Notes under the pieces: generated by a model | What the model saw: only the letters and a program-made list of their open reading frames with translations | What the model was told of the DNA's origin: nothing | Database searches by the model: none | In this document: positions 17,667 to 42,702 of the stretch, piece after piece | How the letters are laid out: the number at the start of each line of letters is the position of its first letter | How positions within the stretch are numbered: the first letter of the stretch is position 1 | Origin: Candidatus Thorarchaeota archaeon | Lineage (GTDB): Archaea > Asgardarchaeota > Thorarchaeia > Thorarchaeales > Thorarchaeaceae | Length of the DNA: 43,661 nt | NCBI GenBank assembly: GCA_016840855.1 | Contig: JAEORO010000134.1 | Location: 1 to 43,661, forward strand | Reading direction: 5' to 3' | Position numbers and translations under genes: made by a program

Positions 17667-18959
17667 GTGGAGAAGATAATAGAACCGGATGAATCCTGCA
17701 TGGAACAGATAAAACTCGACCCTACACCAAAAGTGGCTAAAAGGCCATCATATAACGATAGAGTCTGTAGTAAGTGCATGGGACATCGACATCTATGTGG
17801 AATCAAACCGTGTCCGATTTTAATGAGGGCAAAAGCACAAGCCCAAATCGATAATGCATTTGTTGGAATGGATTTGACCGGGTCTTCACCCCCTTCAGTT
17901 TTTGTTGGAGAGAGTGGGTATCCAAAGGTACTAGCTGGGCCTCTTATTCCTCCTCTCCGATCGGAAGATGCAATGTATATGGAAAGACCTGATCATTGGT
18001 TAACCAAGACAATTGATGAGATTCTAGCTCTACGATTTAGTTTAGTCCGAACAAAGAAGTATATCCCGATTACAGCAGCTCAAGATCCTCCGAAAGACCT
18101 TGCTGAAACACAGACACTGGCGCTTTCTGAATCACCATTGTTGTCAGAAGCAACTCTCCTTAAGAGACCTCAATTTACGACAGTCTTCTCCGATGTAACT
18201 TTACCAATAGGACCTTCAGCTCCCCTTCGAACTTTCAAAATTGATGAGAATCCTTCAGTTCCAAAGGTGATTGATAGGGTGGCATTTGATACAGATCTGA
18301 AAGCGGAGGTTGGAATCAGAGACCTTTTTGATGGAGGGATTCGACTTGAGCATATCACAAGACTCCTCTCTGTGGGAACAATTGGCCAGAAGAAGAAACG
18401 AAGACTGGTTCCAACAAAATGGAGTATTACTGCAACAGATGATATAATTGGAAAGCAGCTCCATAAGGAAGTTTTGAGAAATCCCTGGATCAATGATTTC
18501 CGAGTGAGTGTGGACCATGCACTTGGTAACACTGTTGCTCTTCTCTTTCTTCCAAGTGGTTGGCAGTTTGAAGCTATGGAATCATGGCTTGGAGGTCTAA
18601 AACCACCAATAATTTCTGATCACGAATGGTTCAAAGGTAGAAAGGACTATGCAGAGGATGTTGTTGGGGCTTATTACGCAACCAGACTTCCCGCACTTGA
18701 GTACTTAGTCAATATCCGACGACAATCTGGTGTTATCGTTTTCATGGAGATTGATCCTCAACAGTGGGTACCGCTTGGTGTATGGAGATTTAGAGAGATT
18801 GCTATGCGCGCCTTGCAAACTAATGTGAAAAGTTTTGGCACAATCGACGAGGCTCTAAATGAAATCGCTCCCCACTTTAGAATCCCTATGAACAGATGGT
18901 TGGAAACGAGTAAAATCTATTCTGTGTTCATGAATCAGACAAAACTCACTGATTTCTAA
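17667..18959 (+). CDS. nreA: Nre family DNA repair protein
   Basis: CSKCMG..LCG...CP Zn motif, SPPSVFVG..GYPKV..GP, RRLVPTKWSITATD, GAYYATR, C-terminal PIP box QTKLTDF. Confidence 0.93.
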   Translation: MEKIIEPDESCMEQIKLDPTPKVAKRPSYNDRVCSKCMGHRHLCGIKPCPILMRAKAQAQIDNAFVGMDLTGSSPPSVFVGESGYPKVLAGPLIPPLRSEDAMYMERPDHWLTKTIDEILALRFSLVRTKKYIPITAAQDPPKDLAETQTLALSESPLLSEATLLKRPQFTTVFSDVTLPIGPSAPLRTFKIDENPSVPKVIDRVAFDTDLKAEVGIRDLFDGGIRLEHITRLLSVGTIGQKKKRRLVPTKWSITATDDIIGKQLHKEVLRNPWINDFRVSVDHALGNTVALLFLPSGWQFEAMESWLGGLKPPIISDHEWFKGRKDYAEDVVGAYYATRLPALEYLVNIRRQSGVIVFMEIDPQQWVPLGVWRFREIAMRALQTNVKSFGTIDEALNEIAPHFRIPMNRWLETSKIYSVFMNQTKLTDF

Positions 18960-20507: not shown

Positions 20508-22025
20508 ATGTTGCTGTACGAGAAACTCTGCAGATTTAGCGAACGAATCGTAGGGCGTACAGTTCAATCTACTCACGATAGGGAGCTTCAAAGAGCTGTC
20601 AAGTTTCTTGCTCCTTTAATGGATATTTCAGTCAAGGGCGTTAAAGCGGCTGCAAATCTCTTTTCAGTCCTCATTCTTGTTTCTGTGGTCTTTCTACTCA
20701 CCTATCTTGAGCTGAGCCTCATCATCGTTGCACCACTCGCAGGGATTGCCGGCGTAGTCACTTATTACATAATTGCCTCCTATCCCATATCTGTGATGAA
20801 TAGCTACAAACTTGGCCTATCCGAAGAAGCTGATTTGGTGTTTGAGCAGTTCATTCTCGTATTTCAATCAGGAGGAACCATCTTTGATGCAGTTGAGATG
20901 GTAGCTCAATCGAATCATCCTTACCTTTCATTAGCATTCAGAAAGCTGATTGGTGATATCAATGAAGGAATCCCTCCTGAAACCTGTTTGATGGAGTTTG
21001 CTAGAAACCAACCATCTGACGACCTTCGAAGATACTTTACGGCTATAGTTTCATCCTTGGAGAGGAAGACTGATTTGATAGACATGCTCTCTGGAGAGTC
21101 TTTCGAAGCTGACCTAGCTCTTCGCCAAAAAAATCTCGAATTGGAGAGTAGGCTGCTGATAGTAGCTGCTTTGGTTACATACCTACCCATAATGTTCACA
21201 CTAGCAGTTTCACTCGCAGGATTTGCTACAAGTATATTGCTAGTCCTTATTGCACCAATTTTCATTTTGATGAACGCCTTATTGAAGAGCAGATTTTCAA
21301 GACAATTCTCAGCCTATTTTGATAGACCGCGTGAAACCTCGATAATTGCTCCTTCACAGAATCAAATAATTTCCGAGTATGATGCTTTTCTAAATTTTCT
21401 AATCTTGCTCGGAGAACGTCTAAAATCAGGTGACAATCTAGAAGTATCTCTAGACTCAATTCGTGATGACTTAGAGCCTGAGGTACAGATACTTGTTGAT
21501 ATTGCGATTGACGCTATATATCACGAAAATGCTAGTATTGTCGAAGCCTTGGATCGCGCATCGAAATCAGCTCTGGGACAGAGAGTATCTCAAATGCTGA
21601 ATATGATTGCCATTATGTGCGAAACCTCTGCCCAAGCTGCTGGAGATAGAATATCAAGAATTGCAGCTCGTCTTGTTAAACGATCTGCTGTTGCAAAAGA
21701 AAGAGACTCCATCATTGCTGCTCAAAGAATGAAAGTATACTTACTAACTATTACAAGTGCTGCTGTATTAGGAATGCTTGCCTCACTCTCACCATTCCTC
21801 TTCATCGGCTCGCTTCTCTCCCAAGGTCCAACATGGACTCCTGGAAGTATAACAACTATTGACATCTTACCACTTCTTGTCACTCTCGGAATTACAACAT
21901 TGTCTACAGGATACCAAAATACTAAGATGGTTGGCGGGAATCGTCCGGTTCTAATAGGACTTGTGTGCGGATTACTGTTCTGGATAGCTTTTGGTCTATC
22001 ATCTATAATGATGGGTTTTGGATGA
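20508..22025 (+). CDS. Type II secretion F-family / type IV pilus platform protein (ArlJ/TadBC-like, two repeats)
   Basis: Two T2SSF-like units (QSGGTIFDAVEMVA...GIPPE; KSGDNLEVSL...ASIVEAL), each followed by TM pairs. Confidence 0.8.
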   Translation: MLLYEKLCRFSERIVGRTVQSTHDRELQRAVKFLAPLMDISVKGVKAAANLFSVLILVSVVFLLTYLELSLIIVAPLAGIAGVVTYYIIASYPISVMNSYKLGLSEEADLVFEQFILVFQSGGTIFDAVEMVAQSNHPYLSLAFRKLIGDINEGIPPETCLMEFARNQPSDDLRRYFTAIVSSLERKTDLIDMLSGESFEADLALRQKNLELESRLLIVAALVTYLPIMFTLAVSLAGFATSILLVLIAPIFILMNALLKSRFSRQFSAYFDRPRETSIIAPSQNQIISEYDAFLNFLILLGERLKSGDNLEVSLDSIRDDLEPEVQILVDIAIDAIYHENASIVEALDRASKSALGQRVSQMLNMIAIMCETSAQAAGDRISRIAARLVKRSAVAKERDSIIAAQRMKVYLLTITSAAVLGMLASLSPFLFIGSLLSQGPTWTPGSITTIDILPLLVTLGITTLSTGYQNTKMVGGNRPVLIGLVCGLLFWIAFGLSSIMMGFG

Positions 22026-22086
22026 TTTAGGAATAATTTATTTGCTCTGATGCTTATTGCCGACATAGTTAGGATGAGGTGAAATA

Positions 22087-22746
22087 ATGCTTCAAATCCC
22101 ATTTTTAGATTGGACCTTGGATGAAATCATGGCGTTCTTCAAGGATGATTGGATACTTGCCTGGGTACTCATACTTTCAGGTGGGCTCTTAGCAGTCTGG
22201 TTATTGGAGAACATCACTGATCCAATACCATTGTTAGGCACCATCTTCGACGGACTTGTTGCTGTAGGAACTTACATAGGATTCTTTGTCGGAATCTTAG
22301 ACATTTTCGTTGGATATGTAGTATGGTCGGATCCTGTACAGTCGAATGCAATTATTGTAGCTGGGATTTTAGTACTCATGGGCTTCTCACTAGTCATGAG
22401 AGTCTTATCGAAGTTCCCATTAGCCTTAGTATTTGCATTGGCTGTAGCAGTTTTCGGAGCGGCAACTATCTATTTCTTCTTGCTTCCCTATGCAGATCCA
22501 CTCATTCCTGTACTTGGAGACATTGCTGTTTGGTTAACATCGGGTAAAGGCTTGCTTGTAATCGGATTCATCATATTTTGCGTCGCATATGTAATTGGTG
22601 GACTGATAATCAAGCTTATCCAACTGATCGGGAAAATATTTGCATCACGTCCAGTGAGTGCTCTCGTGGGACTAGCAGCAATCGCAATTGGTGTGATTGT
22701 TATTCTCAACCCTGCATTAGTTGGACTTGTAGTACCTTGGCCATAA
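22087..22746 (+). CDS. Hydrophobic multi-pass membrane protein
   Basis: 219 aa, 6-7 TM, strong SD GAGGTGA. Confidence 0.85.
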   Translation: MLQIPFLDWTLDEIMAFFKDDWILAWVLILSGGLLAVWLLENITDPIPLLGTIFDGLVAVGTYIGFFVGILDIFVGYVVWSDPVQSNAIIVAGILVLMGFSLVMRVLSKFPLALVFALAVAVFGAATIYFFLLPYADPLIPVLGDIAVWLTSGKGLLVIGFIIFCVAYVIGGLIIKLIQLIGKIFASRPVSALVGLAAIAIGVIVILNPALVGLVVPWP

Positions 22747-22791: not shown

Positions 22792-23172
22792 TCATTTTGG
22801 TTTCCTTATCTCTCTAAAATATAGGAATTTGAGATCCCTATCCGAATAGAACTTTGCCGCGGCATCAATTGCTTTCTTCGCTTTAACTATTCCATCATAC
22901 CATTCTGAAACATAGAATTTCTTGTCAGGATCGTGTTGAGTATTTGTAAGAGTGAAACCTTCAGGTAATTCAAATCCATCTGGAACAAGTAGTGCTACTC
23001 GAAACTGTGATAGACCACCTTTGGATTCCAACCAGAGTTCACAATATGTCATAAATGGTCTATTGAGGATTGTATTTCCGTCGATTAAGGTTTGCCTATG
23101 GGGACCAATAAAAGTGCCCAAAGGGTTCTTATAGTAGCATTGCATCACTTCTAGTAGTGTATATTTGTTCAT
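22792..23172 (-). CDS. Hypothetical protein
   Basis: ORF 22792-23217. Start shortened to ATG 23172 (or 23145) to avoid overlapping the divergent gene; start uncertain. Confidence 0.7.
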   Translation of the reverse strand: MNKYTLLEVMQCYYKNPLGTFIGPHRQTLIDGNTILNRPFMTYCELWLESKGGLSQFRVALLVPDGFELPEGFTLTNTQHDPDKKFYVSEWYDGIVKAKKAIDAAAKFYSDRDLKFLYFREIRKPK

Positions 23173-23210
23173 AGGAGAAAGAACAGGGTTTACGATAGGA
23201 GGCATCGTGT

Positions 23211-23753
23211 ATGTCATCAGATGATTCTGACAAGAAAAAGATCATCAGTGTCACGATGAGTCAATCATTGGTCAACCGGATTGATGATCTTGTACAAGAG
23301 AGGGTAGGTCGTTCTCGAGCCCAGCTGATAGAGGATGCAGTAAGATGGTTCTTAGACTTCACAGTCCACAAATGGAATGAACGCGGTGTTTATGTCAGCT
23401 CATTTAGAGCTGTCTTCGAGTCTGAAACATTATCATCATTGTTCTTCTCTAAATTTACACCTACCGACCAGTATGAACTTGGAGAAACTGCAGGGAGTCA
23501 ATCACCAATTGCAGATGTTGTACGTCTATTCTATGGCGGCGACCCAACACACAAGGAGAGTCGCGAGCTCGTTCTCAAACTTCTTCAAGAGAATGGATGG
23601 GGTTCCATTTCTCTTAATGATGATCTAATTGTTATTGGAAGCCCATTTTATCCAGCTCCCTTTATTCGAGGGTATCTTGAATCTTTACTCAAAGTGAAAC
23701 TAGATGTGGTAGAAACTACATCTAAGGAGAATGTAGCTTTACGAATCAAATAA
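23211..23753 (+). CDS. CopG/RHH DNA-binding domain fused to V4R-like domain
   Basis: IISVTMSQSLVNRIDDLV...SRAQLIEDAV (RHH); YELGETAG...GWG...FIRGYLESLL (V4R-like); SD GGAGG 23198-23202. Confidence 0.78.
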   Translation: MSSDDSDKKKIISVTMSQSLVNRIDDLVQERVGRSRAQLIEDAVRWFLDFTVHKWNERGVYVSSFRAVFESETLSSLFFSKFTPTDQYELGETAGSQSPIADVVRLFYGGDPTHKESRELVLKLLQENGWGSISLNDDLIVIGSPFYPAPFIRGYLESLLKVKLDVVETTSKENVALRIK

Positions 23754-23801: not shown

Positions 23802-24227
23802 CTACCATTCTTGGCCAATCTCAAGTATCTCAAATTCACTCTCGTATAGACCTGGAATACTCTCAATGGTCGTTCTAATCGTTGCTTGTTTTTCCTTGAT
23901 GGCATCTGCTGAAAAATAGACTTCATAGATGCAACGATTCTGTTCAAAGCAGAAACCTGTAGTGAATAAGACCTTGAGATCATGCTGCTTGAAAAGCTGA
24001 GTCATCGTCTGCATTAACGCAGGATTGACTTTCTCGACTTCAAGCCTTACACGAGCTCCACCTTCTTTGGTCATAGGGATGAGACGAATTTCCCCTGACC
24101 TCTCGAAGTAGATTACCATCGCCGCCTTCATATCTTGTAGTTCTGGATTTTTGAAGAAGTCTTCTGGAAGGCGAATCTCCCTCTTATTATGAACGTCCGC
24201 AATCATTCCCTTTGTAATACCGGCCAA
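23802..24227 (-). CDS. AbrB-like N-terminus plus ACT-like domain protein
   Basis: VHNKREIRLPEDF (AbrB-like); PALMQTMTQLFKQHDLKVLFTTGFC...IESIPGL (ACT-like); TTG start with SD GAGGCGA. Confidence 0.6.
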   Translation of the reverse strand: MAGITKGMIADVHNKREIRLPEDFFKNPELQDMKAAMVIYFERSGEIRLIPMTKEGGARVRLEVEKVNPALMQTMTQLFKQHDLKVLFTTGFCFEQNRCIYEVYFSADAIKEKQATIRTTIESIPGLYESEFEILEIGQEW

Positions 24228-24419: not shown

Positions 24420-24542
24420 ATGGCAAAAGAAGGCGGAATCTATGTTTGTGATGTGTGTCAACAGGTTGTCTTGGTTCAGAAGTCTGGAGTAGGAACTCTA
24501 GTTTGCTGCAACCAACCTATGCGACTTTATGAGGACGATTAG
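24420..24542 (+). CDS. Desulforedoxin-type FeS4 protein (40 aa)
   Basis: MAKEGGIYVCDVCQQVVLVQKSGVGTLVCCNQPM: CxxC...CC..PM signature. SD GGAGG at 24405-24409 supports ATG 24420. Confidence 0.9.
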   Translation: MAKEGGIYVCDVCQQVVLVQKSGVGTLVCCNQPMRLYEDD

Positions 24543-24629
24543 ACTTAGCTGGTATTTCGGACTCTTCATATTTTATTTCAAGAAATGGAAATGAACCATT
24601 TTCTGTGAATAGATATGTTATTTTCACAC

Positions 24630-24645
24630 TTGACAATGTTTATAT
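24630..24645 (+). promoter_or_regulatory. Candidate BRE-TATA promoter of rpo5 copy 1
   Basis: TTGACAATGTTTATAT, containing TTTATA; 15/16 identical to 25281-25296. Confidence 0.6.
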
Positions 24646-24687
24646 TGCCTCTAGAGGGGCGAAGCCAACGCTTCTTGGGGTGTATTA

Positions 24688-25251
24688 GTGATGATAGAGC
24701 TGCCCAGTAATGTAATCAGGACAAGAAGTCTTCTTAATTTGAGGTCTTTTTCAGTCAACGAAGTTTTTGAATACGATGACAGATATGTAATGTACCCCAC
24801 AAGAGAATTTCAAGGAGTAGTCCAAAAATACGTTATCTGGATACTTAAAGATTCTAAAGTAATTGGAGTCGCCTCTATAAAGGATCTTGCTCGTGAAATG
24901 GAAGAAACTGAATCTCAACGAGGGATGCTCGTTGGTGGACTCAGGTTCACTCCTGCTGCAAAGAAGATGGCTAAGATATCCCGGGTTGAACTGGTTGATG
25001 GTGGATATGCTTCATTCGAACTCTTTGAACATGAATTAGTGCCGACACATATCATCGCAAAAGATGAAGAACTGAAACTTGTTCTGAATTATTATGGTAT
25101 CAAAAAGAATCAACTTCCTAGAATTCATCGAGACGACCCCGCTGTCAAAGTACTAGGTGCACGACCTGGGCAGGTTATTCGGATTGAACGTAACAGTCCT
25201 ACAGCTGGTCAGAGCTTTTACTATCGTCTAGTAGTTGACTCAACAAGTTAG
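24688..25251 (+). CDS. rpo5: RNA polymerase subunit Rpo5/RPB5, long form with N-terminal jaw domain, copy 1
   Basis: C-terminal HELVPTH, QLPRI..DP, GARPGQVIRI.R.SPTAG..YYRLV; about 105-aa N-terminal domain. Confidence 0.92.
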   Translation: MMIELPSNVIRTRSLLNLRSFSVNEVFEYDDRYVMYPTREFQGVVQKYVIWILKDSKVIGVASIKDLAREMEETESQRGMLVGGLRFTPAAKKMAKISRVELVDGGYASFELFEHELVPTHIIAKDEELKLVLNYYGIKKNQLPRIHRDDPAVKVLGARPGQVIRIERNSPTAGQSFYYRLVVDSTS

Positions 25252-25280
25252 TCTTTATTGCATATCAAAAATTCAATTCT

Positions 25281-25296
25281 TTGATAATGTTTATAT
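25281..25296 (+). promoter_or_regulatory. Candidate BRE-TATA promoter of rpo5 copy 2
   Basis: TTGATAATGTTTATAT, near-identical to the element upstream of copy 1. Confidence 0.6.
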
Positions 25297-25326
25297 CAAA
25301 GGCTTTGAAACTGGTCATCATCACGG

Positions 25327-25902
25327 GTGTTTTCTAAATTGCCAAATCTGCCTGAAATACCAGCTATTGTAATGAAGACCAGAGCACTACTCGCACTCAG
25401 AGGTTTTACAACTACCGAGCTTCTTGAGTATGATGATCGGTACGTACTACATCCATCAAAACTGGTGAAGGACGTCTTGCGAAAGTATGTTGTCTGGATT
25501 TTAAAGGAAGAGAAGGTTATCGGTGTCGCATTAGTGAGAGAGGTCGTCAAGGAGATGGAAGAAACTGGGTCTCAACGAGGTATGCTTGTTGGTGGGTCTC
25601 GGTTTACTCCTGCATCCAACAAGTATGCGAAAGTTTCCAAGGTTGAACTTGTGGAAGGTCATTATGCTTCATTTGACCTTTTTGGACATGAAATAGTACC
25701 ACCTCATGTTATAGCTGAAGAAGCAGAAATTCAATTGGTTCTTGAGCACTATGGCATCAAGAAAACCCATTTACCAAGAATTCAAAGCAGAGACCCAGCA
25801 GCCCGTGTCTTGGGTGCTCGCCCTGGTCAAGTGATTCGCGTGGAGCGGTTGAGCCCTACCGCCGGACTATCATATTATTATCGATTGGTTGTCGACTCTT
25901 AA
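25327..25902 (+). CDS. rpo5: RNA polymerase subunit Rpo5/RPB5, long form, copy 2
   Basis: HEIVPPH, LPRIQSRDP, GARPGQVIRV.R.SPTAG..YYRLV; aligns without gaps to copy 1. Start could be TTG 25339. Confidence 0.92.
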   Translation: MFSKLPNLPEIPAIVMKTRALLALRGFTTTELLEYDDRYVLHPSKLVKDVLRKYVVWILKEEKVIGVALVREVVKEMEETGSQRGMLVGGSRFTPASNKYAKVSKVELVEGHYASFDLFGHEIVPPHVIAEEAEIQLVLEHYGIKKTHLPRIQSRDPAARVLGARPGQVIRVERLSPTAGLSYYYRLVVDS

Positions 25903-25904
25903 TT

Positions 25905-26681
25905 TTAGATTGCTATTAGTCCCATCCAAAATGCAGCTAGAAATATTATCATACAAGTAATCAGGGGCAGTGTGATATTATCAGTACCTTTTGGACTCAC
26001 AAATTCCACTGTTGTTGCAGAAATTGCTCCGACCAATGCTAGCACAATCATTTCAAACCAGAGAACATTTCCTCCTACAATGAATACAGGGCTAGCCAAA
26101 CTAAATATTCCGAACCACCAGAACGCCAGAAGAGAACCAAAGAATCCGAATATGAAAACTGCAAGTGTACCTGGTACACTCCGGTTTGATCCAAAGATGA
26201 CTCTAGTTGTGGTGCGACCATATCTCATACCAATTGGAGCACTCATTCCATCACCAAACATCATAATGTGAATTGCAGCTGCTGGAATGAAATAGAGTTC
26301 TTGATACCCAGTAAAGGTGAATATTCCAGTGAGTAGTGTTATTGAAACCGCATACCAGAATGGTCCTCTAACACTATTATGTTCTAAATCCTCAGGTCGA
26401 GCCATCGCAGCAAAAAATCCACTAAATCTTTCAGTATTTGCAAGAGCAAGCATGATAACAAACGTTAACGCGACAAGGGTAGCTACCCAAGGGTGAGGAT
26501 AATAAGGCACAGTCCAGATTGCAGCTCCAGCAAAGAGATGCACAATTCGTCTTGTTGTTTCTGAACCAAGATTGCGCCTCTTTCTTGTTATATCTGCTAT
26601 TGTTAGAATTATTACAGCATAGAACACGGCGATGAAGTAAACAACAATATCCTCAAGTACAATCGAGAACTCCACTTGCAT
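25905..26681 (-). CDS. SEC59/DGK1/VTE5-family polyprenol (dolichol/phytol) kinase
   Basis: RRIVHL, GDGMSAPIGMRYG, RSVPG, DNITLP; multi-TM. Confidence 0.85.
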   Translation of the reverse strand: MQVEFSIVLEDIVVYFIAVFYAVIILTIADITRKRRNLGSETTRRIVHLFAGAAIWTVPYYPHPWVATLVALTFVIMLALANTERFSGFFAAMARPEDLEHNSVRGPFWYAVSITLLTGIFTFTGYQELYFIPAAAIHIMMFGDGMSAPIGMRYGRTTTRVIFGSNRSVPGTLAVFIFGFFGSLLAFWWFGIFSLASPVFIVGGNVLWFEMIVLALVGAISATTVEFVSPKGTDNITLPLITCMIIFLAAFWMGLIAI

Positions 26682-28331: not shown

Positions 28332-28784
28332 TCAGGTTGCCAGAAGTTTTCTAATATGATCTGCAGCTAGGTTCTTATCTGTAACATATTTAGTGAAAGT
28401 TTTCTTCTTTGCTTCTTCTATACAGGTCATTAAATTGTTCAGATCTTTACACCAAATCAAGTAGCCACGAGATGCCATCTCATGAATCAGTTGAGCTTGA
28501 TGACCTTCCATGAGGGTTGTGTTCTCCACCACAACAAGTTTGAGCCCACGAGTAACACATTCCATAGTTGTGCCTGCGCCGCCTGTGCTCACGACAACTG
28601 AAGCTTTTTGATATGCTTCACTAAGGCTCTTTAGATATCGGAAGTATCTGAAATGCTTTGGAATATACATTCCTCTACCTATCTGTCCAACAACCTGCTC
28701 TTCTAGCACGCCACTCCGAACCAATTCATCCATTTTCGAAATTAGAGGGTCATAATGAGCTGTTCCAACAGTAACAAAAATCAT
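28332..28784 (-). CDS. alg13: Alg13/PssE-like glycosyltransferase subunit (GT28 C-terminal domain)
   Basis: MIFVTVGT, QIG, GGAGT, HQ. ATG 28784 overlaps the alg14 stop (ATGA). Confidence 0.85.
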   Translation of the reverse strand: MIFVTVGTAHYDPLISKMDELVRSGVLEEQVVGQIGRGMYIPKHFRYFRYLKSLSEAYQKASVVVSTGGAGTTMECVTRGLKLVVVENTTLMEGHQAQLIHEMASRGYLIWCKDLNNLMTCIEEAKKKTFTKYVTDKNLAADHIRKLLAT

Positions 28785-29263
28785 AGTAACTGACCTCCGT
28801 AGATCACACCTGGATTTTTTTCTGCGAGCTCTTTCCACTGAACCATGAAAAGACTTACTCTTCCAAGAAGTAAACGTCCGGTCTTTGAAAGTGACTCAAC
28901 ACGTGACATACTTTCTATGAATACTGTTGGTATACGAAGTGCCCTAGCAGAATAGAATATTGGAACTGTCATTCCTGTTCCACAACTGACTATCAAGTTC
29001 GGTCGAAGTACTAGCAGATAGATGAATGAAAGGAAGAGCGTGAGAATTGTACGAATCACAGACATCAGTCGAGAATCTTGAGGTAACAACCTAGGTGTGA
29101 GAACACGAAGTACTCTCCCTTTTAGACGAATCTGCTTTGGTGTCAATCTATCGAGAAGACCGGTGATGTAGATATATTCAAAATCTTCCCCTAAGGAATC
29201 CACTAGGGCAAAAGTCTGTGCAGTGTGGCCTCCTCTACCCAACACAACTGCTATCTTCTTCAA
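28781..29263 (-). CDS. alg14: Alg14/PssD-like glycosyltransferase subunit
   Basis: LGRGGHT, RPNLIVSCG, FIESMSRV..LS.TG, VQWKEL; no N-terminal TM. Confidence 0.85.
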   Translation of the reverse strand: MKKIAVVLGRGGHTAQTFALVDSLGEDFEYIYITGLLDRLTPKQIRLKGRVLRVLTPRLLPQDSRLMSVIRTILTLFLSFIYLLVLRPNLIVSCGTGMTVPIFYSARALRIPTVFIESMSRVESLSKTGRLLLGRVSLFMVQWKELAEKNPGVIYGGQLL

Positions 29264-30967: not shown

Positions 30968-31792
30968 TTGGTGCTGAGAAAAATGGAAGAATATTTACTC
31001 GCTACTAAGTTCTTCAATGAGCGGGAGCAACTTCCATTATTCATTGCTAATATTGCAGAGCAAACCGTGAAACCTGTTGTAATTCTATTTGTAAACGATG
31101 GATCAAATGATGATAGCGCTGAGATTGCCAAGAAAGTTTCTTCGACATATAACTTGAATTATGAAATAGTGTCTATGCCCGTAAAAGCAAAGGGTAATCT
31201 AGACACTCTTGGTAGAGCATGGAATAAAGCTCAACCTCTAATCAAAGAACTGCTATCTGATGTCCCATATTTCGCTACCGCTGATGTGGATACAAGATTT
31301 CCACCAAACTACTTCGAATTCATGGTAAATTTCTTAGAAAGCCACCCGAAGGTGGGCGTTGTAGCTGGGCAAGTAACTGGAGAACGTAGAAGAACATTCC
31401 CTATGTTCACGGGAAAAGTTGTTCGTTCTAATGTCATTCAATATATTGACAAATACTGGGATATATCCATTGATTCATTTCTCAATATCAAAGCACTAAA
31501 ACTAGGTTACGAATTAGAAATTATCAATGAGATGAAAGTGAATGCAAGAACTTCCCATCTTGGCACAAAGAAAGGACGATTTAGAGCTGGCAGACTTGCT
31601 TATTATGGCGGGATAAATTCTCTTTATGCTATATTCAAGGCACTAACAAGTTTTGATTCAGAATTCCTTAGAGGTTATTGGTTTGAGTTTTTCAAAGGGA
31701 CATGGAAATGTGAGGATGAGGACATTCTGAATTACTATCATAATGAGTTCATAAGAAAAGCACGTCGAGTAGTCGAAATTCTATTTCAATAA
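30968..31792 (+). CDS. GT2-family glycosyltransferase
   Basis: FNE, VNDGSND.S, DVD (DxD) motif. Confidence 0.88.
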   Translation: MVLRKMEEYLLATKFFNEREQLPLFIANIAEQTVKPVVILFVNDGSNDDSAEIAKKVSSTYNLNYEIVSMPVKAKGNLDTLGRAWNKAQPLIKELLSDVPYFATADVDTRFPPNYFEFMVNFLESHPKVGVVAGQVTGERRRTFPMFTGKVVRSNVIQYIDKYWDISIDSFLNIKALKLGYELEIINEMKVNARTSHLGTKKGRFRAGRLAYYGGINSLYAIFKALTSFDSEFLRGYWFEFFKGTWKCEDEDILNYYHNEFIRKARRVVEILFQ

Positions 31793-31863
31793 TGAAGAAG
31801 CCTTAAAGGGTCACCATGATTCCCTTTAGTAGAGTTCTCTGTCATAAAGGTGAATTTGGGTTT

Positions 31864-32958
31864 ATGCGAGTCTGCATGGTTGAGGAAATAGCAAACTGCG
31901 CCTATCACTTGACAACAGGCTTGACACGGAAAGGACATTTAGTAGTTGCAGTACTAGATGTAAAACGACAGCTGAACCGATTGCTTTTCACTCATTCAGT
32001 GCAGAAAGGTGCTGAGGTGAAGTGGATTAAACCATGGCCACTTCGACCTAGAGCATTAGGATTGTTTGTACCAATGCTCCTTGCTATCATAAGAAGTAGA
32101 CCTCATATTGTCCACGCTCAGTATCTATGGTCACAATTTTTTATCGCTTTTATAGCTTCGAAACTTCTTCGAATACCGATTGTCGCCACAGGCCATGGAT
32201 GGGAGGTTCTTGAGGTCCCAAGATCAAGATTTCGTGGTAGAATCCAGAAGTGGTTCCTGAAACGAACTGATATGGTCATTCTAACTGCTGAATATTATCA
32301 TAAATATATGCAAGGAATCGTTTCACCAAAGAATCGCGTGTATATTCCACGAATGATAGACACTGATACATTCCGGCCTGGGATTAACGCAGAAGATCTC
32401 ATCAACAAGTATGGGAATAGAATTGTGACATTTATTGCGAGGCTTCACAAAATTAAAACTCCTGAAAAAACATTACAGGCATTTAGATTCGCACTTGATG
32501 AATTTCCTGACGCAAATCTCTTGATACTTGGAATTGGTGAAGAAGAGAAGAATATGCGTATGTTAATTGATGACCTTAATATGACTGCTAGTGTTCACTT
32601 TCTTGGTGAAGTGTCAAACACAGAGATTCCAAGATATTTGAATGCCTCAAAGGTTGAAGTTAGAGGTTTCAATCCTGATACTCCAGAGTTAGGAATTTCT
32701 CATTTGGAGGCATTGGCCTGTGAAACACCTGTCCTGACTTATAATGACTATAAGATGGTGGGTGGCATGATAATTTGCCTTGAAGTACCTGAAATAGCTG
32801 AGAACCTGAAAAAGATACTCAGAGATGAGAATTTTCAGAAGAGTCTTGGGAAAGCTGGACGGAAATATGTGTTGGAAAACTTTGGAATCGATGTGGCTAC
32901 AGATATGACAGTCAATGCATATCATGTTGTTCTCTCAAGAAGGAAGAGGAGGGCTTGA
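31864..32958 (+). CDS. GT4-family glycosyltransferase
   Basis: PHIVHA, TGHG, IARL..IK, ELGISHLEALACETPV (Ex7E). ATG 31864 follows SD AAGGTGA. Confidence 0.92.
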   Translation: MRVCMVEEIANCAYHLTTGLTRKGHLVVAVLDVKRQLNRLLFTHSVQKGAEVKWIKPWPLRPRALGLFVPMLLAIIRSRPHIVHAQYLWSQFFIAFIASKLLRIPIVATGHGWEVLEVPRSRFRGRIQKWFLKRTDMVILTAEYYHKYMQGIVSPKNRVYIPRMIDTDTFRPGINAEDLINKYGNRIVTFIARLHKIKTPEKTLQAFRFALDEFPDANLLILGIGEEEKNMRMLIDDLNMTASVHFLGEVSNTEIPRYLNASKVEVRGFNPDTPELGISHLEALACETPVLTYNDYKMVGGMIICLEVPEIAENLKKILRDENFQKSLGKAGRKYVLENFGIDVATDMTVNAYHVVLSRRKRRA

Positions 32959-34253
32959 TGATTATGAAGAAGAACAAAATGAAGATCAGCTTTGTACTTG
33001 GAACTAGACCTGAAATAATCAAGCTATACTCAGTGATGAAAGCTGCTGAAGTACACAAGATGGTCACACCTATTTTCATTCATACTGGACAACACTATGA
33101 TTTTGAAATGTCCCAAGTTTTTCTAGAGGAGTTAAAGTTACCAGAGTTTCATTATTTTCTAGATGTCAAATCAGGCTCTCATGCAAGTCAAACAGCTCTC
33201 CTCTTAGTTGAACTTGAAAAGACGCTCATGAAAGAACAACCTGATGTGGTGATTGTGCTTGGAGATACAAACACAACAATGGCTGGAGCTTTAGCGGCAT
33301 CAAAGCTGGGAATACCAGTAGCTCATGTTGAAGCGGGTTGTAGGTCCTTTGATATGGCAATGCCAGAAGAAATCAATCGGCTGACAGCAGATGCTATTAG
33401 TTCTATCCTATTTGCTCCATCAGAAGTTGCAGCTCTCAATCTTCTCTATGAAGGCCATTCACAAGATCGTGTATTTTTCTCTGGAAATACAGTTGTCGAT
33501 ATCGTGGAAGAAACAAGTGAACTACGAAAATCAATGAAGCTTGATTCAACAATCATCGAGGAATATGATGTTGTAGTTACTATCCATCGACAAGAAAATG
33601 TGGATCATGAGAAACGCTTGAGAGAACTGATAGTTGCGTTAAGTGAAATTGGTGGAAAGGTCATCTTTCCAATACATCCAAGGACTAGAAAAAGAATTGA
33701 AGAGTTTGGTTTAATGGACTTAGTTGAATCAACAACAAACCTGAAGCTCATAAAACCTCTCAACTTCCTCTCTTTCATGAAGCTCATGGAGGAATCAAAA
33801 GTTGTAATCACAGATAGTGGTGGTGTTCAAGAAGAAGCTGTTATGCTTGGAACACCTTGTATTACTGCACGGGATACAACGGAATGGCCAGAAACAGTAT
33901 GGGTTGGAGGAAATCGTCTTGCAGGTTCTAACGCAATGAACGTTACTAAATTTTGTAATGAGGTTCTGTTACGATCTAAAACCACTACAAAGAAAAGCAT
34001 GAATCCATTCAAAGGCAATGCTGGTACCTCAATCATTAACACACTCGTTGAACTTTGGCAGACGGGAAATCTAGGACTACCAAGACCAGATATGAGTGAT
34101 GGAAAATATCCTTTGCCTACACTACAAGGAAAATCGCATCAGCTGGAAAAAGTCTACCAAACATCACTGGAATTTGATAAGAATGGGAATGCTATCATCA
34201 ATCGTGATGATAGTGTGAATAATAAAGTAGTGAGGATTCCCAAGAGGAAATAG
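32955..34253 (+). CDS. wecB: UDP-GlcNAc 2-epimerase, non-hydrolysing (WecB/WbpI-like), with C-terminal extension
   Basis: GTRPEIIK, HTGQHYD, GDTNT, HVEAG.RS, PEEINR, TIHRQEN, TDSGGVQEEA. Confidence 0.93.
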   Translation: MMIMKKNKMKISFVLGTRPEIIKLYSVMKAAEVHKMVTPIFIHTGQHYDFEMSQVFLEELKLPEFHYFLDVKSGSHASQTALLLVELEKTLMKEQPDVVIVLGDTNTTMAGALAASKLGIPVAHVEAGCRSFDMAMPEEINRLTADAISSILFAPSEVAALNLLYEGHSQDRVFFSGNTVVDIVEETSELRKSMKLDSTIIEEYDVVVTIHRQENVDHEKRLRELIVALSEIGGKVIFPIHPRTRKRIEEFGLMDLVESTTNLKLIKPLNFLSFMKLMEESKVVITDSGGVQEEAVMLGTPCITARDTTEWPETVWVGGNRLAGSNAMNVTKFCNEVLLRSKTTTKKSMNPFKGNAGTSIINTLVELWQTGNLGLPRPDMSDGKYPLPTLQGKSHQLEKVYQTSLEFDKNGNAIINRDDSVNNKVVRIPKRK

Positions 34254-34261
34254 CATATCAA

Positions 34262-35194
34262 TTAGAAACCATCTGCGTACTTTTCTCCCTCTTTCAGAGG
34301 TTTGACCCCCAAACGACCTATAAGCCATTTAGGATAGGAAATGAGTAGTCTAAGAGCTCTTCTCAAAGTAAACTTAGGTTTGTGCATTGACTTGTATAAG
34401 TCATAGTAGTCCACAGGAGTTACTATTTTGTAATCCTCTATGATTTCATTTGGTTTGGCATCAGCCACTACTTTGCATCCACAGGCTATTGCTTCGATTG
34501 CATTCTTACTCAGTGATATTCCTGGAAATCCTTTGAATTCTAAGAAATATTCATACTTCGATAGAAACTCAGGCATCTCCTTGTATGGTATTGGAGGATC
34601 GATACTTCTGTCAACAATTGTGAGTTCAAGACCTCGTTCTTTACACCACTTCTTTGCCATCTCTCGCTGGTCTTTGTGATAATTAGGGTGATATGTCATA
34701 ACAGCTGTTCCTGGAACTCTACCACCTTTGTATTCAAACCATGTTGGTATAGGTCTATCAAGCCAGATGTCTCCATACCTCAACATATCATTAGTAGATA
34801 CAGCAATGATGTCCGCAAGAGATACTTCTGGATGTGGCTTTTTCCGAGAACGAATCTCTCCTCCATGGTACTCGAATACAATAGGCGTCCTTTTTTGATA
34901 TTGACGAGCCAATACCAAGGCACGAATCACAGTTGAAACATGAATGTGAGTCGGATTCCATTCTTTGAGATATTTTCTGCATTCTTTGTAGAAGTCCCTC
35001 GCAGAATCCACCATTACAGAACCTGACACTCTAGATGTATGTCCATACTTGTCGTACCCCGCTCTCATGATGATGACTGACTCATGACCGTTCTTATTCA
35101 GCCAGTCGCATACCTCTGCAAGAGAGCCACCAGTATTCCAGAGAATTAAGACTCTTAATTTGTCTTTACTTTTATTTTCCAATTCACTATTCAC
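34262..35194 (-). CDS. Short/divergent GT-B (GT4-like) glycosyltransferase
   Basis: LRVLIL N-terminus, HIHV, YHGGEIR, LSKNAIEAIACGCKV. Confidence 0.65.
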   Translation of the reverse strand: MNSELENKSKDKLRVLILWNTGGSLAEVCDWLNKNGHESVIIMRAGYDKYGHTSRVSGSVMVDSARDFYKECRKYLKEWNPTHIHVSTVIRALVLARQYQKRTPIVFEYHGGEIRSRKKPHPEVSLADIIAVSTNDMLRYGDIWLDRPIPTWFEYKGGRVPGTAVMTYHPNYHKDQREMAKKWCKERGLELTIVDRSIDPPIPYKEMPEFLSKYEYFLEFKGFPGISLSKNAIEAIACGCKVVADAKPNEIIEDYKIVTPVDYYDLYKSMHKPKFTLRRALRLLISYPKWLIGRLGVKPLKEGEKYADGF

Positions 35195-35315
35195 TTATTC
35201 TTACCTTCTAGGTCTCACTACAAGAATCAACGAGTGGTTTCTTACATTTATTTTCTTTTAGAGCTGAACATATAATCATCTATGTCCAAATATTGGCTGT
35301 CTACTGATTGTTATA

Positions 35316-36725
35316 TCATTTTGAGATGATTTCCAGTATCAGGTCGATCATTCGTTTTTTAGCTCCACTTCGAAAGAATCTCTCTGAATCGAAATGCTTG
35401 AAATTCTGATTCTCTTTAAGATGGTGGACTAACTCTTCTACGTTCGAAACTTTTACAGCGACTTCTTCTTCTACTAGCTGTTTGGGGTAATCCACATCTT
35501 GAATACCAGGTATATAGGTCTTCAATCCAAAAGCAAGACCCTCAAAAACTGCCGTGGAATACACTCCAATCTGGATTTCTGATTCTGCAAATAGCTTATA
35601 GAGTGGAATCCTAGAGTCAGAAATCACATCTACACTACTATCAACCAACCAAGGATATTTCTCCTGCCATCCTTTGACCTCTAATGGATGTAGTTTGTAG
35701 ACGATATCATAATCTAGATCCTTTACTTTTGATAAATCAACTATAAACTTGGATAGATCTTCACCGATTGTCCATTGAGAGATTACTAGAATCTGTTTCC
35801 TCTTTCGCAGATTTGAAAATACTTTACGCTCTTCATCCAAGTAAGGAAATCCTACACTAACCACATGCTGATTCTCAATTGTATAGTCCACGCTTTCAGT
35901 CCAATAATCACCAAATGTAAACAACCAATCCGGAAACGTCATCTTCCTATGTTTCTTATTAGGAAAGGAATAACCTGCATGGGATCGGTTGATTACTCCA
36001 TGCTGAAGCTCAATAACAGGAATACGTAAGGATTTTGCAGGTTCTATAAGATCTTCCTTACCATAGCTTGTAAGTAGTATTATCGCTCGAGGCCTGATTC
36101 TTTTCAGTACAAATTGAAAATAGTGAATTCTAATTCTCCTATATCCCAAATGTCTTAACACTAGTTTCTCAACATCAAGGTTCACACCAAATGAGAGATC
36201 TATCATTTTTCTGATTTTCTTTAGTATGATTCTTTCATCATGGTTTAATGAAACTCGAAATAACCTCAACTTTTCTGCAATATAGATGAGTGACGTTTCA
36301 AAATCAAAATACCAAAGGTTTGAGGTCTTTGGTGGGCTTTGATGTTGAAGATTGATACTATGCTCAATAGCCGCACAGCTTAGATTGATCTTTTCCATTA
36401 TGGGGTCTGTATAGATGTCCCACCAGAATCCATCTTTCCTTAAAATTCTGCGAGGACTTGAAATAAACAAAAGGTCCCGTTTTCCTGCAAAAATCGGGTT
36501 CTTCCATAGTCTCCCAAATGAAATAATAATTGACCAAATTCTCTCGCGAAGAGAAGGTCCTTTTATCAGAGAACTCCCTTGACCTTTAAGAAGTTCATAG
36601 ATGGTTACAACGATTGGTTGCCGTACATATTCCCAAAATCTAACATTAGCAATGGTTCTATCAAAGAGCTTTAGCTTGTCTTCTATTTCAAGGATTTTCT
36701 GAAATATATCATCAAAACCTAGCAT
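35316..36725 (-). CDS. GT-B protein, candidate nonulosonate (sialyl)transferase / capsule biosynthesis protein
   Basis: ELQHG, VGFP, KLHPLE, YSTAVFEGL motifs; clustered with neuABC. Confidence 0.6.
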   Translation of the reverse strand: MLGFDDIFQKILEIEDKLKLFDRTIANVRFWEYVRQPIVVTIYELLKGQGSSLIKGPSLRERIWSIIISFGRLWKNPIFAGKRDLLFISSPRRILRKDGFWWDIYTDPIMEKINLSCAAIEHSINLQHQSPPKTSNLWYFDFETSLIYIAEKLRLFRVSLNHDERIILKKIRKMIDLSFGVNLDVEKLVLRHLGYRRIRIHYFQFVLKRIRPRAIILLTSYGKEDLIEPAKSLRIPVIELQHGVINRSHAGYSFPNKKHRKMTFPDWLFTFGDYWTESVDYTIENQHVVSVGFPYLDEERKVFSNLRKRKQILVISQWTIGEDLSKFIVDLSKVKDLDYDIVYKLHPLEVKGWQEKYPWLVDSSVDVISDSRIPLYKLFAESEIQIGVYSTAVFEGLAFGLKTYIPGIQDVDYPKQLVEEEVAVKVSNVEELVHHLKENQNFKHFDSERFFRSGAKKRMIDLILEIISK

Positions 36726-36822
36726 TTTTTTACAACCCGTTTTGTGGGATAGTAGAAACCTTCTCTCTATGCGATTGGGATAAGGAACACGCTTTAAACC
36801 CTTCTTTGTTGAAGAACAAATT

Positions 36823-38406
36823 CTAATCGCCAGAAATTTGATTGCTTAGTTCTCCTCTCCTGATAAAAAGGGAAATCAGAAACCTCGTTACAGGATCCAC
36901 AAGTCGAGAAGGTAAAAAGACAGTAGCTTTCCTAATTTCTGATTCAGTGACCAATTTGAGAATTCGCGTAGCACCAATGTAAATCACAATGAATATTGAT
37001 GCATTTGCCGCTAGCTCAAGTATTGGGTTAATTCGTAGAAAATGGACTACAACTGCTGGTACCAATCCAGAAAATGCTATTGCGCTAAAATGCATAATTC
37101 TTCCGACTCGTAGATTCAAGTCTGGCACGCTCTTTTTAACAAAGACTACTGAAAAGAGAGCACTAAAGATGGGATTTGAAATATACCCTAAAACAACAAA
37201 CATGAGGCCAAAATCCATAAAGATGAACATTAAAAATCCACTCAGTATCGAAGCTAAAATTGAGGATGCCAGTATATATTGTGTATTTGCCGAAGCTGAA
37301 AGAATTGCATGTAATGGTCTCAAGAATAAGTAGAAGAACATTTGAATTATTAAAATCCCAAAGTATTGATATGCCCAATAATAACGCGGGAAGACTATTA
37401 GAAATGCAGATGGAGCCATTACAAGGCATACAACAATTACTGGCGTAAAAATAAAGAATGACATACGTACTGTCCATTGAAAGATATCATCAAGATCCTT
37501 AATACTTTTTCCCAATGCTACAGTATAGTATGAACCCAGAGTGCCATAATAGCCTAAAGTAAATGCATTAACAAACGTGACTATTCTCACAGCAAAGCCA
37601 TAAAGTCCCAGTTCTCCGCCATATCCTAAAGTGTCATAATATTGGAAAATTGCTCTTATCAAGACCTCATTTAATACATATGCAAACAAAAATGCAATTA
37701 TCGGCGGATATGCAAATTTGATGAGTGGTTTTAATGGATACAATGACCCTTTCAAAGACCAGATGTTTTTGACTGTGGAATAAAGAAAGATAGCTGTTAC
37801 CAATCCCAAGATTATTGATTTCATGAGTAGTGCTCGAATTCCCCAGTTCAAAGGAATCAATACCATTACAACAACTTGGCTGGCCACATTGGCAAGCAAG
37901 TTACCAATACCAAGATTACGAAACTCTCGATATGCTGAAGCCACAACGCTCGGAAATGATGATAAATTAATACTCATGACTCCAAAAGTGAAAACCAATC
38001 CATCAATTAGCAGATATTCTGAACCTCGCCCAGATAATGTCAGCACAATTGGTGTGATAAAAAAAGCGATGAGACCACTTAGCGGCACTAAAATCAATGT
38101 ACTTACAGTTAATGATTTTCTCAGATTAACCACTGATTCCTCATCTTCTTTGCCAATTGAGTACGCCATGTAACGACCTATTGCGTTGTGAATTCTAAAT
38201 GGAACTAAAGTAATGAGGAAGGAAGTGAGCACATCATACCACACAAAAAGACCATACTGATCCGTAGAAATGTAGAGCTGTATTTGCCAAGAAACAACGA
38301 GCCCTAAGATTAAGGATGCAAAAGGACTCAGAGACATAAAGACTCCGCCACGTAGCATCTTCTTTCTTGCATCTACTTGTTCATCTGATGGCATTTCAAC
38401 GGTCAT
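36823..38406 (-). CDS. Wzx/MOP-family oligosaccharide flippase
   Basis: 527 aa, about 14 TM, QYGLF and ELGLYGFA.RI motifs, inside the glycan cluster. Confidence 0.85.
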   Translation of the reverse strand: MTVEMPSDEQVDARKKMLRGGVFMSLSPFASLILGLVVSWQIQLYISTDQYGLFVWYDVLTSFLITLVPFRIHNAIGRYMAYSIGKEDEESVVNLRKSLTVSTLILVPLSGLIAFFITPIVLTLSGRGSEYLLIDGLVFTFGVMSINLSSFPSVVASAYREFRNLGIGNLLANVASQVVVMVLIPLNWGIRALLMKSIILGLVTAIFLYSTVKNIWSLKGSLYPLKPLIKFAYPPIIAFLFAYVLNEVLIRAIFQYYDTLGYGGELGLYGFAVRIVTFVNAFTLGYYGTLGSYYTVALGKSIKDLDDIFQWTVRMSFFIFTPVIVVCLVMAPSAFLIVFPRYYWAYQYFGILIIQMFFYLFLRPLHAILSASANTQYILASSILASILSGFLMFIFMDFGLMFVVLGYISNPIFSALFSVVFVKKSVPDLNLRVGRIMHFSAIAFSGLVPAVVVHFLRINPILELAANASIFIVIYIGATRILKLVTESEIRKATVFLPSRLVDPVTRFLISLFIRRGELSNQISGD

Positions 38407-38597
38407 TATGTCAACCTGCGGCTTAGTCTCTATTTATACTCTCTTAACTTGATTATCATTAAAATTGTGATTATTCAAGAATTGTGCTACGTCTTATCTT
38501 GTGAAAAGGGAATAATTCTTTTAGTCGTTCGATACTTTCTTCAAAGTTGGCTATGGTGTCCCATATGTCTATGCGTTAAAAATAAGGAGAGCAAGTC

Positions 38598-39917: not shown

Positions 39918-39990
39918 ATGGAAACACATCCATCTCGACTCTGATATCCAATGGATATTTTAATCAAGTCTTCAGAAATCTTTAGACGGT

Positions 39991-40719: not shown

Positions 40720-40895
40720 AATTAGATTTGATATTTTCAATTACTGCTTTATGCAGACTTCTGAGAAGAACTATCACAGAAAAATCAGCATGTGTCATCT
40801 ATATTTCATGTCAGTAAATTGATACAGCAATAAATTTCACAATACTAGTATCTCTTATTAATTAAAAACTTAGGATACTGCTTTGAGGTGATATC

Positions 40896-41318
40896 TTGAC
40901 AGAAATTATGTGGGTACCATGTGTGTTAGAAGATGTTTCAATTGATACACGATTCTTCATGGGTGGAACAAATTACACTTCAGCATCCGATGCTGATTTT
41001 CAAGCTTTATTCCTTCTTCCATTACCAACAATGAAGGGGTATCAAAGATTGTACGTGAGTGGAGTGAAAATTGGTGTCTTTGATGCTAATCCAGCGGATT
41101 ATGTTGATTGTGTGGTTCTTTATGCTGCAAGCTACAATGGATACCAGATTCTGATAGACGAAAAAACGAAGCGGACTATGAAGGGATCATATCCTTCCGA
41201 GTTCCCTCCTGTTGATGTTAGTGCACACGAGAAAGTTATAGCGCGATTGTTCTGTGTGGCATCAGCTCCCAAGGGTCTTGATATTTCAAGTGTATTGGTG
41301 AAATGTCATTACCAATAG
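40896..41318 (+). CDS. Hypothetical beta-rich protein
   Basis: 140-aa ORF, TTG start 5 nt after the SD GAGGTG; followed by its own hairpin. Confidence 0.75.
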   Translation: MTEIMWVPCVLEDVSIDTRFFMGGTNYTSASDADFQALFLLPLPTMKGYQRLYVSGVKIGVFDANPADYVDCVVLYAASYNGYQILIDEKTKRTMKGSYPSEFPPVDVSAHEKVIARLFCVASAPKGLDISSVLVKCHYQ

Positions 41319-41340
41319 CCTAACCATTTGATTAGTATTC

Positions 41341-42679: not shown

Positions 42680-42702
42680 CTTAGCTATAAGGTTGGATTT
42701 GA

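Follow-up and report, generated by a model that had tools for sequence, protein, structure and literature searches.

The 43,661-nucleotide stretch analysed here (the window; contig JAEORO010000134.1 of assembly GCA_016840855.1, Candidatus Thorarchaeota archaeon) carries two adjacent genes for a long form of Rpo5, the archaeal counterpart of the eukaryotic RNA polymerase (RNAP) subunit RPB5. This tandem long-form pair is real, conserved and under selection. Both genes are supported as full-length, two-domain Rpo5/RPB5 homologues, in which an N-terminal domain resembling the RPB5 jaw precedes a C-terminal assembly domain. The most likely reading, to which we give a probability of about 0.6, is that alternative RNAP isoforms would be assembled by exchanging one Rpo5 for the other on a single polymerase core, as had been proposed in an earlier reading of the DNA alone (hereafter the original prediction).

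The pair is contained in two intact plus-strand open reading frames (ORFs) of the window, at 24688-25251 (187 aa) and 25327-25902 (191 aa). Their gapless alignment at about 64% identity, counted by hand in the original prediction, was reproduced by BLASTP (117/182 identical residues, 153/182 positives, no gaps, E 4e-92). Alignment of orthologue 5' ends places the true starts at ATG 24691 and TTG 25339, not at the GTG codons of the longest ORFs, and the two copies, A upstream and B downstream, are spaced by 87 nt on one contig. Promoters were deduced from orthologue alignments; a sigma-70 promoter/terminator scan is inapplicable to archaea and was disregarded. The features of the locus are as follows.

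24420-24542, plus strand: desulforedoxin gene (40 aa; PF06397, E 3.7e-12), the conserved upstream neighbour in 62/77 loci of relatives.
24627-24646, plus strand: putative copy A promoter, conserved cacttgacaatg followed by the TATA box tttatatt (24639-24646), 52 nt 5' of the ATG.
24677-24682, plus strand: Shine-Dalgarno (SD)-like ggggtg of copy A; an SD-like motif lies no more than 25 nt from the start in 30/36 upstream copies.
24691-25251, plus strand: rpo5 upstream copy (A), 186 aa from ATG 24691, with the TAG stop at 25249-25251; the longest ORF runs from GTG 24688.
24691-25002, plus strand: N-terminal jaw-like domain of copy A, residues 1-104, with a Mrr-like PD-(D/E)XK fold and an incomplete catalytic motif.
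24949-24960, plus strand: T-P-A-A of copy A, which aligns to TPSA, the eukaryotic motif for contact with downstream DNA (human MTPSAK).
25003-25248, plus strand: C-terminal assembly domain (Rpb5_C) of copy A, residues 105-186 (PF01191, 96.3 bits; NF007129, 100.4 bits).
25280-25297, plus strand: putative copy B promoter, tttgataatg followed by the TATA box tttatatc (25290-25297), 49 nt 5' of TTG 25339.
25325-25329, plus strand: SD-like gggtg of copy B, which encloses GTG 25327; an SD-like motif is present in 34/36 downstream copies.
25339-25902, plus strand: rpo5 downstream copy (B), 187 aa from the likely start TTG 25339, with the TAA stop at 25900-25902; the longest ORF runs from GTG 25327.
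25606-25617, plus strand: T-P-A-S of copy B, the counterpart of the TPSA motif.
25905-26681, minus strand: convergent membrane-protein gene without Pfam match, the conserved downstream neighbour that bounds the locus in 67/77 loci of relatives.

Among the tandem pairs of relatives, a TATA-like box lies 44-64 nt 5' of the start in 36/36 upstream copies (at -53..-45 in the alignment) and 36/36 downstream copies, and the SD-like sites are mostly of the GGTG type. Copies A and B appear to be separately promoted, each with its own TATA box and SD-like site. Four sets of metatranscriptome contigs gave no placement at 80% likeness, a result that speaks neither for nor against expression.

The C-terminal domain is that of a typical Rpo5. 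Against PF01191 (cut-off 23.5 bits) copy B scores 85.1 bits beside the 96.3 of copy A, and against the rpoH equivalog model NF007129 (cut-off 83) the scores are 86.6 and 100.4 bits, respectively. Compared with PDB sequences, the domain matched archaeal subunit H (Pyrococcus chain) at E 1.5e-21. Eukaryotic RPB5 sequences in the PDB were aligned over query residues 55-182, that is, into the N domain, and a profile made from 45 Thorarchaeia-type sequences only was aligned with eukaryotic RPB5 over profile positions 44-181 (E 9.9e-25). With the C domain attached, the alignment reaches back to profile position 41-48. The AF2 model of copy A (predicted local distance difference test, pLDDT, 93.6) retrieved RPB5-type chains at all of ranks 1-35 in Foldseek (query TM-score, TMq, 0.64-0.79, over 143-216 columns); superposition on eukaryotic RPB5 gave TM 0.76-0.79, and archaeal subunit H chains matched the C domain alone. 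Both copies retain the C-terminal arginines, in ..IR(I/V)ER.. and ..YYRLVV. R180 is invariant and R168 present in at least 90% of 66 aligned sequences, and the two align with the arginines of human IIR and YRLV. In yeast, R200 and R212 clasp Rpb1 (PMC1802627), and we infer that R168 and R180 are their equivalents.

The N-terminal domain had been described as an echo of the eukaryotic RPB5 jaw. This holds for the motifs, since LRSF/LRGF, KVIGVA, RGMLV and FTPA are all present, and for the PD-(D/E)XK-like fold, placed ahead of Rpb5_C as in RPB5; the Pfam match, however, is to Mrr_cat and not to RPB5_N. PF04471 (Mrr_cat) scores 26.4 bits in copy A and 30.2 bits in copy B (cut-off 21) over profile positions 43-108 of 115, and 34/34 N domains exceed the cut-off (best E 8.4e-11). 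With the N domain modelled by itself (pLDDT 92.7), Foldseek retrieved EndoMS at E 5.8e-5 (TMq 0.64) and RPB5 (1dzf) at rank 4 (E 1.5e-3; root-mean-square deviation 3.1 Å over 81 columns). The domain spans about 104 aa and does not have the extra block that follows the RGY motif in aligned RPB5-length sequences. The TP of the TPSA motif, which touches downstream DNA in Pol II (PMC6690254), is invariant in 34/34 N domains. Likewise, the arginine of the helix motif L..R(G/S)(Y/F) is invariant in the family and present in at least 90% of a 66-sequence alignment that includes RPB5-length proteins; it would correspond to the essential R26 of yeast. The domain is most likely a PD-(D/E)XK fold of nuclease origin, homologous to the RPB5 jaw in position, orientation and fold, and in sequence it appears to stand between Mrr nucleases and eukaryotic RPB5.

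The genome (3.36 Mb in 259 contigs, with 6.33% estimated contamination) contains no Rpb5_C matches other than these two, and the question of a third rpo5 copy elsewhere, raised in the original prediction, is answered in the negative within its 92% completeness. The location outside the rpo operon was also read correctly. The flanks are the desulforedoxin and convergent membrane-protein genes, while rpoB, rpoA' and rpoA'' lie on a separate contig (C77), whose end cuts rpoB, so that this assembly lacks the region ahead of it. In 29 relatives, 87 same-strand ORFs that precede rpoB were screened, and none is Rpo5-like. Canonical archaeal rpoH is short and single-copy and heads the rpoH-rpoB-rpoA series (PMC10833476); here the genes encode 186 and 187 aa, are two in number and lie off the rpoB contig. 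No restriction-modification or repair context surrounds them. The genome holds one rpoB, one rpoA'/rpoA'' pair beside it, one Rpo6 (C105) and one TATA-binding protein (C178), together with about six full transcription factor B (TFB) genes with TFIIB repeats on C19, C72, C97, C249 and C256, plus one partial gene; two of the TFB genes form a tandem pair on C97 and two lie on C72. As a separate observation, multiple TFBs could partner with alternative polymerase forms. Another concerns Rpo1'' (443 aa; C77, L111:2127-3455, minus strand), which opens with a Lys/Thr/Ser/Ala-rich low-complexity tail of about 47 residues and itself ends in KKKKK, both unusual for half of an RNAP large subunit.

Rpo5 matches were retrieved in 72/87 genomes of the order, and the 15 without a match are 52-91% complete. 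One of these, the one-scaffold genome G049, was considered as a case of true Rpo5 absence and rejected, given that a run of N interrupts the syntenic locus after the 141-aa ORF (L193, G049:C1:828392-831724). No extra short rpoH was found in any of these genomes. Same-contig tandem pairs number 36 and occur in five of the 16 genera of the family: 19 of the 28 genomes of the genus to which this genome belongs (this one included), one genome in genus g16, two in g24, ten in g25 and four in g29. The duplication is thus not strain-specific; strain-specificity would have spoken against the original prediction. The synteny of the family comprises an RHH gene, the 141-aa ORF, the desulforedoxin gene, one or two Rpo5 genes, the membrane-protein gene and a CinA-like gene, with the neighbours conserved in 62-67 of 77 loci. 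The 141-aa ORF (23805-24227, minus strand in the window; no Pfam match) is conserved by the Rpo5 locus in 66/77 family loci. Between the same flanking genes, some congeners have an upstream-type gene only (G001, G007, G012 and G017) and one has a downstream-type gene only (G067). Because congeners keep one or the other type alone, it appears that either can serve as the sole Rpo5.

Copies A and B are identical at 61/102 residues of the N domain and 56/80 of the C domain, so that the reported clustering of differences in the N domain survives as a mild enrichment and no more. In DNA, 349/546 positions and 66/182 third positions are identical, and the longest identical run is 13 nt; the duplication is old, with no recent gene conversion in this genome. 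Median pairwise ratios of nonsynonymous to synonymous substitution rates (dN/dS), taken from pairs with dS 0.1-2 only, were 0.099 for upstream copies (40/171 pairs) and 0.085 for downstream copies (28/171 pairs); against the nearest congener, they were 0.061 and 0.049, respectively. By this measure purifying selection acts strongly on copies A and B alike, in each of the two domains, and the relaxed selection against which the original prediction had warned is seen in neither.

Several differences between the paralogues recur. In the 36 pairs, the upstream copy starts with ATG in 33, whereas the downstream copy never does, using TTG or GTG in all 36. Non-AUG starts lower translation in archaea, and the TTG start of the downstream copy suggests weaker translation. 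The upstream copy has derived residues, RS(F/Y) and DPAVK, where the downstream copy keeps the ancestral RG(Y/F) and DPAAR; the Gly of RG(Y/F) is lost in the upstream copies of four of the five genera and kept in the downstream copies of four of the five. Since it is both derived and ATG-started, the upstream copy is probably the bulk subunit. In-register identical runs stand out in two of the 36 pairs, one of 41 nt at the 5' end in G015 and one of 34 nt in G046. The upstream copy of G015 (L026) has the 5' region of a downstream copy and a TTG start, a gene-conversion tract between the tandem copies. Gene conversion between the copies is rare.

The upstream copies of the genus form a clade (support 98/91) with the same species set as the downstream copies. 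The duplication predates the radiation of the genus and is possibly family-wide. The quick tree and the careful tree disagree on the backbone; for the latter, and for the approximately unbiased (AU) tests, three partial sequences at contig ends (G016, G052 and G011) were left out. Grouping all sequences of the genus in one clade was not rejected (AU p 0.58), the constrained tree being 4.6 log-likelihood units better than the free search, and neither was a separation of all downstream from all upstream copies (AU p 0.385), which was 8.5 units worse. An RpoB tree, as a proxy for the species tree, scatters the tandem genera (five changes, at least three of them forced). In favour of one family-wide event are the start-codon dichotomy across the five genera, the pattern of the RG(Y/F) Gly (lost upstream in 4/5 and kept downstream in 4/5 genera) and the split of the single-copy genera into ATG-type and TTG-type groups. 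Against it, the likelihood slightly favours the two copies of the genus as sisters. Gene conversion could blur the dating signal. The phylogeny called for in the original prediction thus dates the duplication as older than the genus, with a family-wide origin as a possibility.

The interaction with the polymerase core was modelled for copy A with residues 48-443 of Rpo1'' and 700-885 of Rpo1'. The docking score was 0.74, against 0.05 for the best of three controls; as solved Rpo5-Rpo1 complexes exist, this score attests likeness only and may reflect memory. Solved complexes attain this mark in 116 of 157 cases and mismatched pairs in 2 of 215. At least 94% of contacts recur between runs, and the pLDDT of the partner is at least 76. 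On this prediction, copy A docks on Rpo1'/Rpo1''. Copy B has the same residue at 29 of the 39 positions in the predicted interface, with mostly conservative changes at the rest. The concern that only one copy might dock on Rpo1 is therefore answered in part: copy A passes the prediction, both copies keep the docking arginines, and copy B shows 29/39 identity at the predicted interface.

If both proteins are competent subunits, they would compete for the single Rpo5 site on Rpo1'/Rpo1''. Because both are taken to be competent for this one site, the cell could make its one RNAP in two forms. What would distinguish them is the lower jaw, the part at which RPB5 contacts downstream DNA and transcription factors. 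A more specific form of this reading, possible and put forward tentatively, is that one ancient family-wide duplication was followed by a functional split. The derived upstream copy, with its ATG start, would then belong to the bulk RNAP, and the ancestral-like, TTG-started downstream copy to a minor isoform with another lower jaw. Such an isoform would make other contacts with downstream DNA or with factors, and it might be paired with some of the six TFBs.

Several results weigh against alternative isoforms formed by Rpo5 exchange. The likeness of the N domain to the RPB5 jaw is one area of weakness: PF03871 (RPB5_N) has no match at E ≤ 1 in either protein or in any of 34 N domains; with a profile of 34 N domains alone, RPB5 took all of the top 11 of 14 PDB sequences at a best E of only 0.013, which is not significant; and in the N-only Foldseek search the fold is as near to EndoMS, MspJI and AF1548 as to RPB5. 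The docking prediction was made for copy A only, and its confident contacts all fall in residues 105-182, in the C domain, so that the placement of the jaw on RNAP is not covered. With one rpoB, one Rpo6 and one TATA-binding protein, there is no second polymerase core for a paralogue to mark. Finally, paralogue-specific fixed differences amount to only five positions in the genus, and 11/16 genera as well as at least five species of the same genus have a single copy. Because so many lineages manage with one, the second copy is dispensable in them, which fits redundancy as well as specialisation.

The last two points also speak for the main rival, in which the copies are redundant duplicates, interchangeable Rpo5 proteins kept for dosage or for a neutral partition of expression, and the RNAP forms are functionally alike. 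In addition to the few fixed positions and the single copies, of either type, in most genera and several congeners, the copies share the DNA-contact TP motif and 29 of the 39 residues predicted to form the interface. We consider this explanation rather unlikely, as neither copy has decayed over the radiation of the genus or in four other genera, with dN/dS values of about 0.05-0.1. The differences that recur across genera (ATG in 33/36 against 0/36; Gly loss in the upstream copies of 4/5 genera) argue for differentiation. Redundant copies would also be expected to be kept alike by gene conversion, which is rare in the 36 pairs (runs of 41 and 34 nt, one of each).

One paralogue could also act off the polymerase, as a free DNA-binding or regulatory protein, an assembly factor, or a decoy for Rpo1 or for jaw-binding factors. 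Consistent with this, the N domain has a nuclease-derived DNA-binding fold, and the upstream copy has the derived RS(F/Y) and DPAVK at sites where conservation is otherwise the rule. Nevertheless, both copies have the full assembly domain and the docking arginines, each type occurs by itself in some species and can thus be the sole Rpo5, and the derived copy A is the very one that passes the docking prediction. Such a role is improbable.

Another alternative is that the jaw domain is still an enzyme, with a non-canonical PD-(D/E)XK site that would give nuclease or phosphodiesterase activity to the polymerase or to one isoform. E28 and an acidic residue at position 30 are present in 105/105 sequences, K54 in 104/105 and E/D55 in 98/105, all 34 N domains are above the Mrr_cat cut-off, and PD-(D/E)XK enzymes with a relocated acidic residue exist. 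Conversely, all 105 sequences have I, V or L at the canonical (D/E)xK acid position, two before Lys54, the Mrr_cat match is confined to profile positions 43-108 of 115, and eukaryotic RPB5 is regarded as non-catalytic. The N domain is most likely catalytically dead, and we hold enzymatic activity to be very improbable. Still weaker, to the point of being negligible, is an assembly or binning artefact merging genes of two strains or organisms in this metagenome-assembled genome (MAG), for which the 259 contigs and 6.33% estimated contamination could be cited: a single contig carries both genes with 87 nt between them, their order and flanks recur across 36 independent assemblies (among them contigs >100 kb and a genome of 2.6 Mb in one contig), and the copies are only 64% identical and fall into separate upstream and downstream clades.

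Other genes of the window are recorded here in their own right. A DEAD/DEAH helicase with a C-terminal DUF5814 is encoded at 7197-9815 (plus strand), and an archaeal Nre gene with N and C domains at 17667-18956 (plus strand). They are followed by genes for two membrane proteins of 505 and 219 aa without Pfam match (20508-22746, plus strand) and by a further 141-aa ORF, also without Pfam match (22795-23217, minus strand). At 28332-29263 (minus strand), adjacent overlapping Glyco_tran_28_C and Alg14-like genes make up a split Alg13/Alg14-type glycosyltransferase pair, known from eukaryotic N-glycosylation. Positions 30968-43659 hold a glycan/nonulosonic-acid-type cluster with NeuB, a cytidylyltransferase, two UDP-GlcNAc 2-epimerases and several glycosyltransferases, as well as three large ORFs without Pfam match; its G+C content of 0.36-0.40 is below that of the rest of the window.

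The long form is not special to this organism: many Asgard families and some Bathyarchaeia have it. Within the best 150 match rows, at least 11 further families of the phylum have a long form whose alignment starts near query residue 12; short forms occur in others, and among the matches listed seven genomes outside the family show two. Outside Asgard, a scan built on two peptide patterns, and so not a census, retrieved long forms in six Bathyarchaeota/Bathyarchaeia MAGs (L177, L179-L183) and one Hadarchaeota MAG (L178). In one of the former (L179), the gene encodes 183 aa, at 1465-2016, and lies between unrelated genes, not beside rpoB. Two further observations concern unusual architectures. 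One 465-aa frame from another family of the phylum (G039:C63:11504-12376, minus strand) is matched twice, by query residues 38-183 and by residues 14-103, and may encode an Rpo5 whose N domain is duplicated or accompanied by an extra one. In a search of representatives, the Rpo5-like region is only part of longer proteins in P0150 (561 aa), P0152 (481 aa), P0156 (436 aa) and P0251 (378 aa).

In the available parts of four published accounts, the RPB5 jaw module is eukaryote-only and archaeal RpoH is without it (PMC1802627, PMC6690254, PMC3906176, PMC3424549). The jaw-type domain on archaeal Rpo5 contrasts with this view. No description of an archaeal long-form Rpo5 or of Rpo5 paralogues was found in the literature searched, supplements and the 2021 Asgard diversity paper being outside its scope. 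A 2026 study models Thorarchaeota Rpo5 with Rpo1, Rpo6 and Rpo8; its available text makes no mention of the N domain and does not contain the word 'paralog' (PMC13257274). If the functional split set out above is true, the pair would represent the first archaeal RNAP isoforms by subunit paralogy, in the lineage nearest to eukaryotes and on the subunit with the supposedly eukaryotic jaw.

Four known systems can be compared with the pair. Canonical archaeal Rpo5/RpoH (about 80 aa; PDB 8cro_H, 4qiw_H and 7ok0_H) is matched by the C-terminal 80 residues, which are those of a typical subunit H. Unlike it, the Thorarchaeota proteins have about 186 aa with an N domain, and their genes are duplicated and placed in a separate conserved locus.

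Mrr and NucS/EndoMS nucleases of the PD-(D/E)XK type (PF04471; PDB 5gkj, 2vld and 4f0q) provide the best Pfam family and the best structural matches of the N domain alone. They differ in that the canonical (D/E)xK acid is absent here and that the domain shares its polypeptide with the assembly domain of a polymerase subunit. In sequence, the archaeal jaw-type domain is closer to Mrr nucleases than eukaryotic RPB5 is, and because of this it makes a plausible intermediate, in which a nuclease domain would have been recruited to the DNA entry channel of the polymerase before eukaryotes arose.

Eukaryotic RPB5/RPABC1 of Pol I, II and III (PDB 1dzf, 8uhd_E and 7vba_E) has the same order of PD-(D/E)XK jaw and assembly domain (TMq 0.76-0.79), and similarity in sequence extends beyond the C domain to take in about 60 residues of the N domain. 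Both have the C-terminal arginines, the helix motif L..R(G)(Y/F) and the motif TP(S/A)A. In contrast, the N domain has about 104 aa here and 142 in yeast, and an insert of about 20-30 residues after RGY is missing here. The Thorarchaeota N domain scores with Mrr_cat and not with PF03871 and keeps the invariant nuclease-motif Lys, which is lost in human RPB5, and there are two genes for one polymerase core.

Plant NRPB5/NRPE5 (Pol II/IV and Pol V, respectively; PDB 7eu0_E and 8hyj_E) and trypanosomatid RPB5/RPB5z resemble the pair in having more than one RPB5-type gene per genome, with differences concentrated in the jaw half. The existence of these paralogues follows from Table 1 of PMC6690254 and from PDB molecule names. 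The plant paralogues are tied to polymerases with different catalytic subunits, whereas here there is one rpoB and the isoforms would differ by Rpo5 alone. The analogy to plant Pol V drawn in the original prediction thus stands for the subunit and fails for separate polymerases. The pair raises the question of whether the small-subunit diversification of polymerases seen in plant Pol IV/V and trypanosomes began in archaea, with one core.

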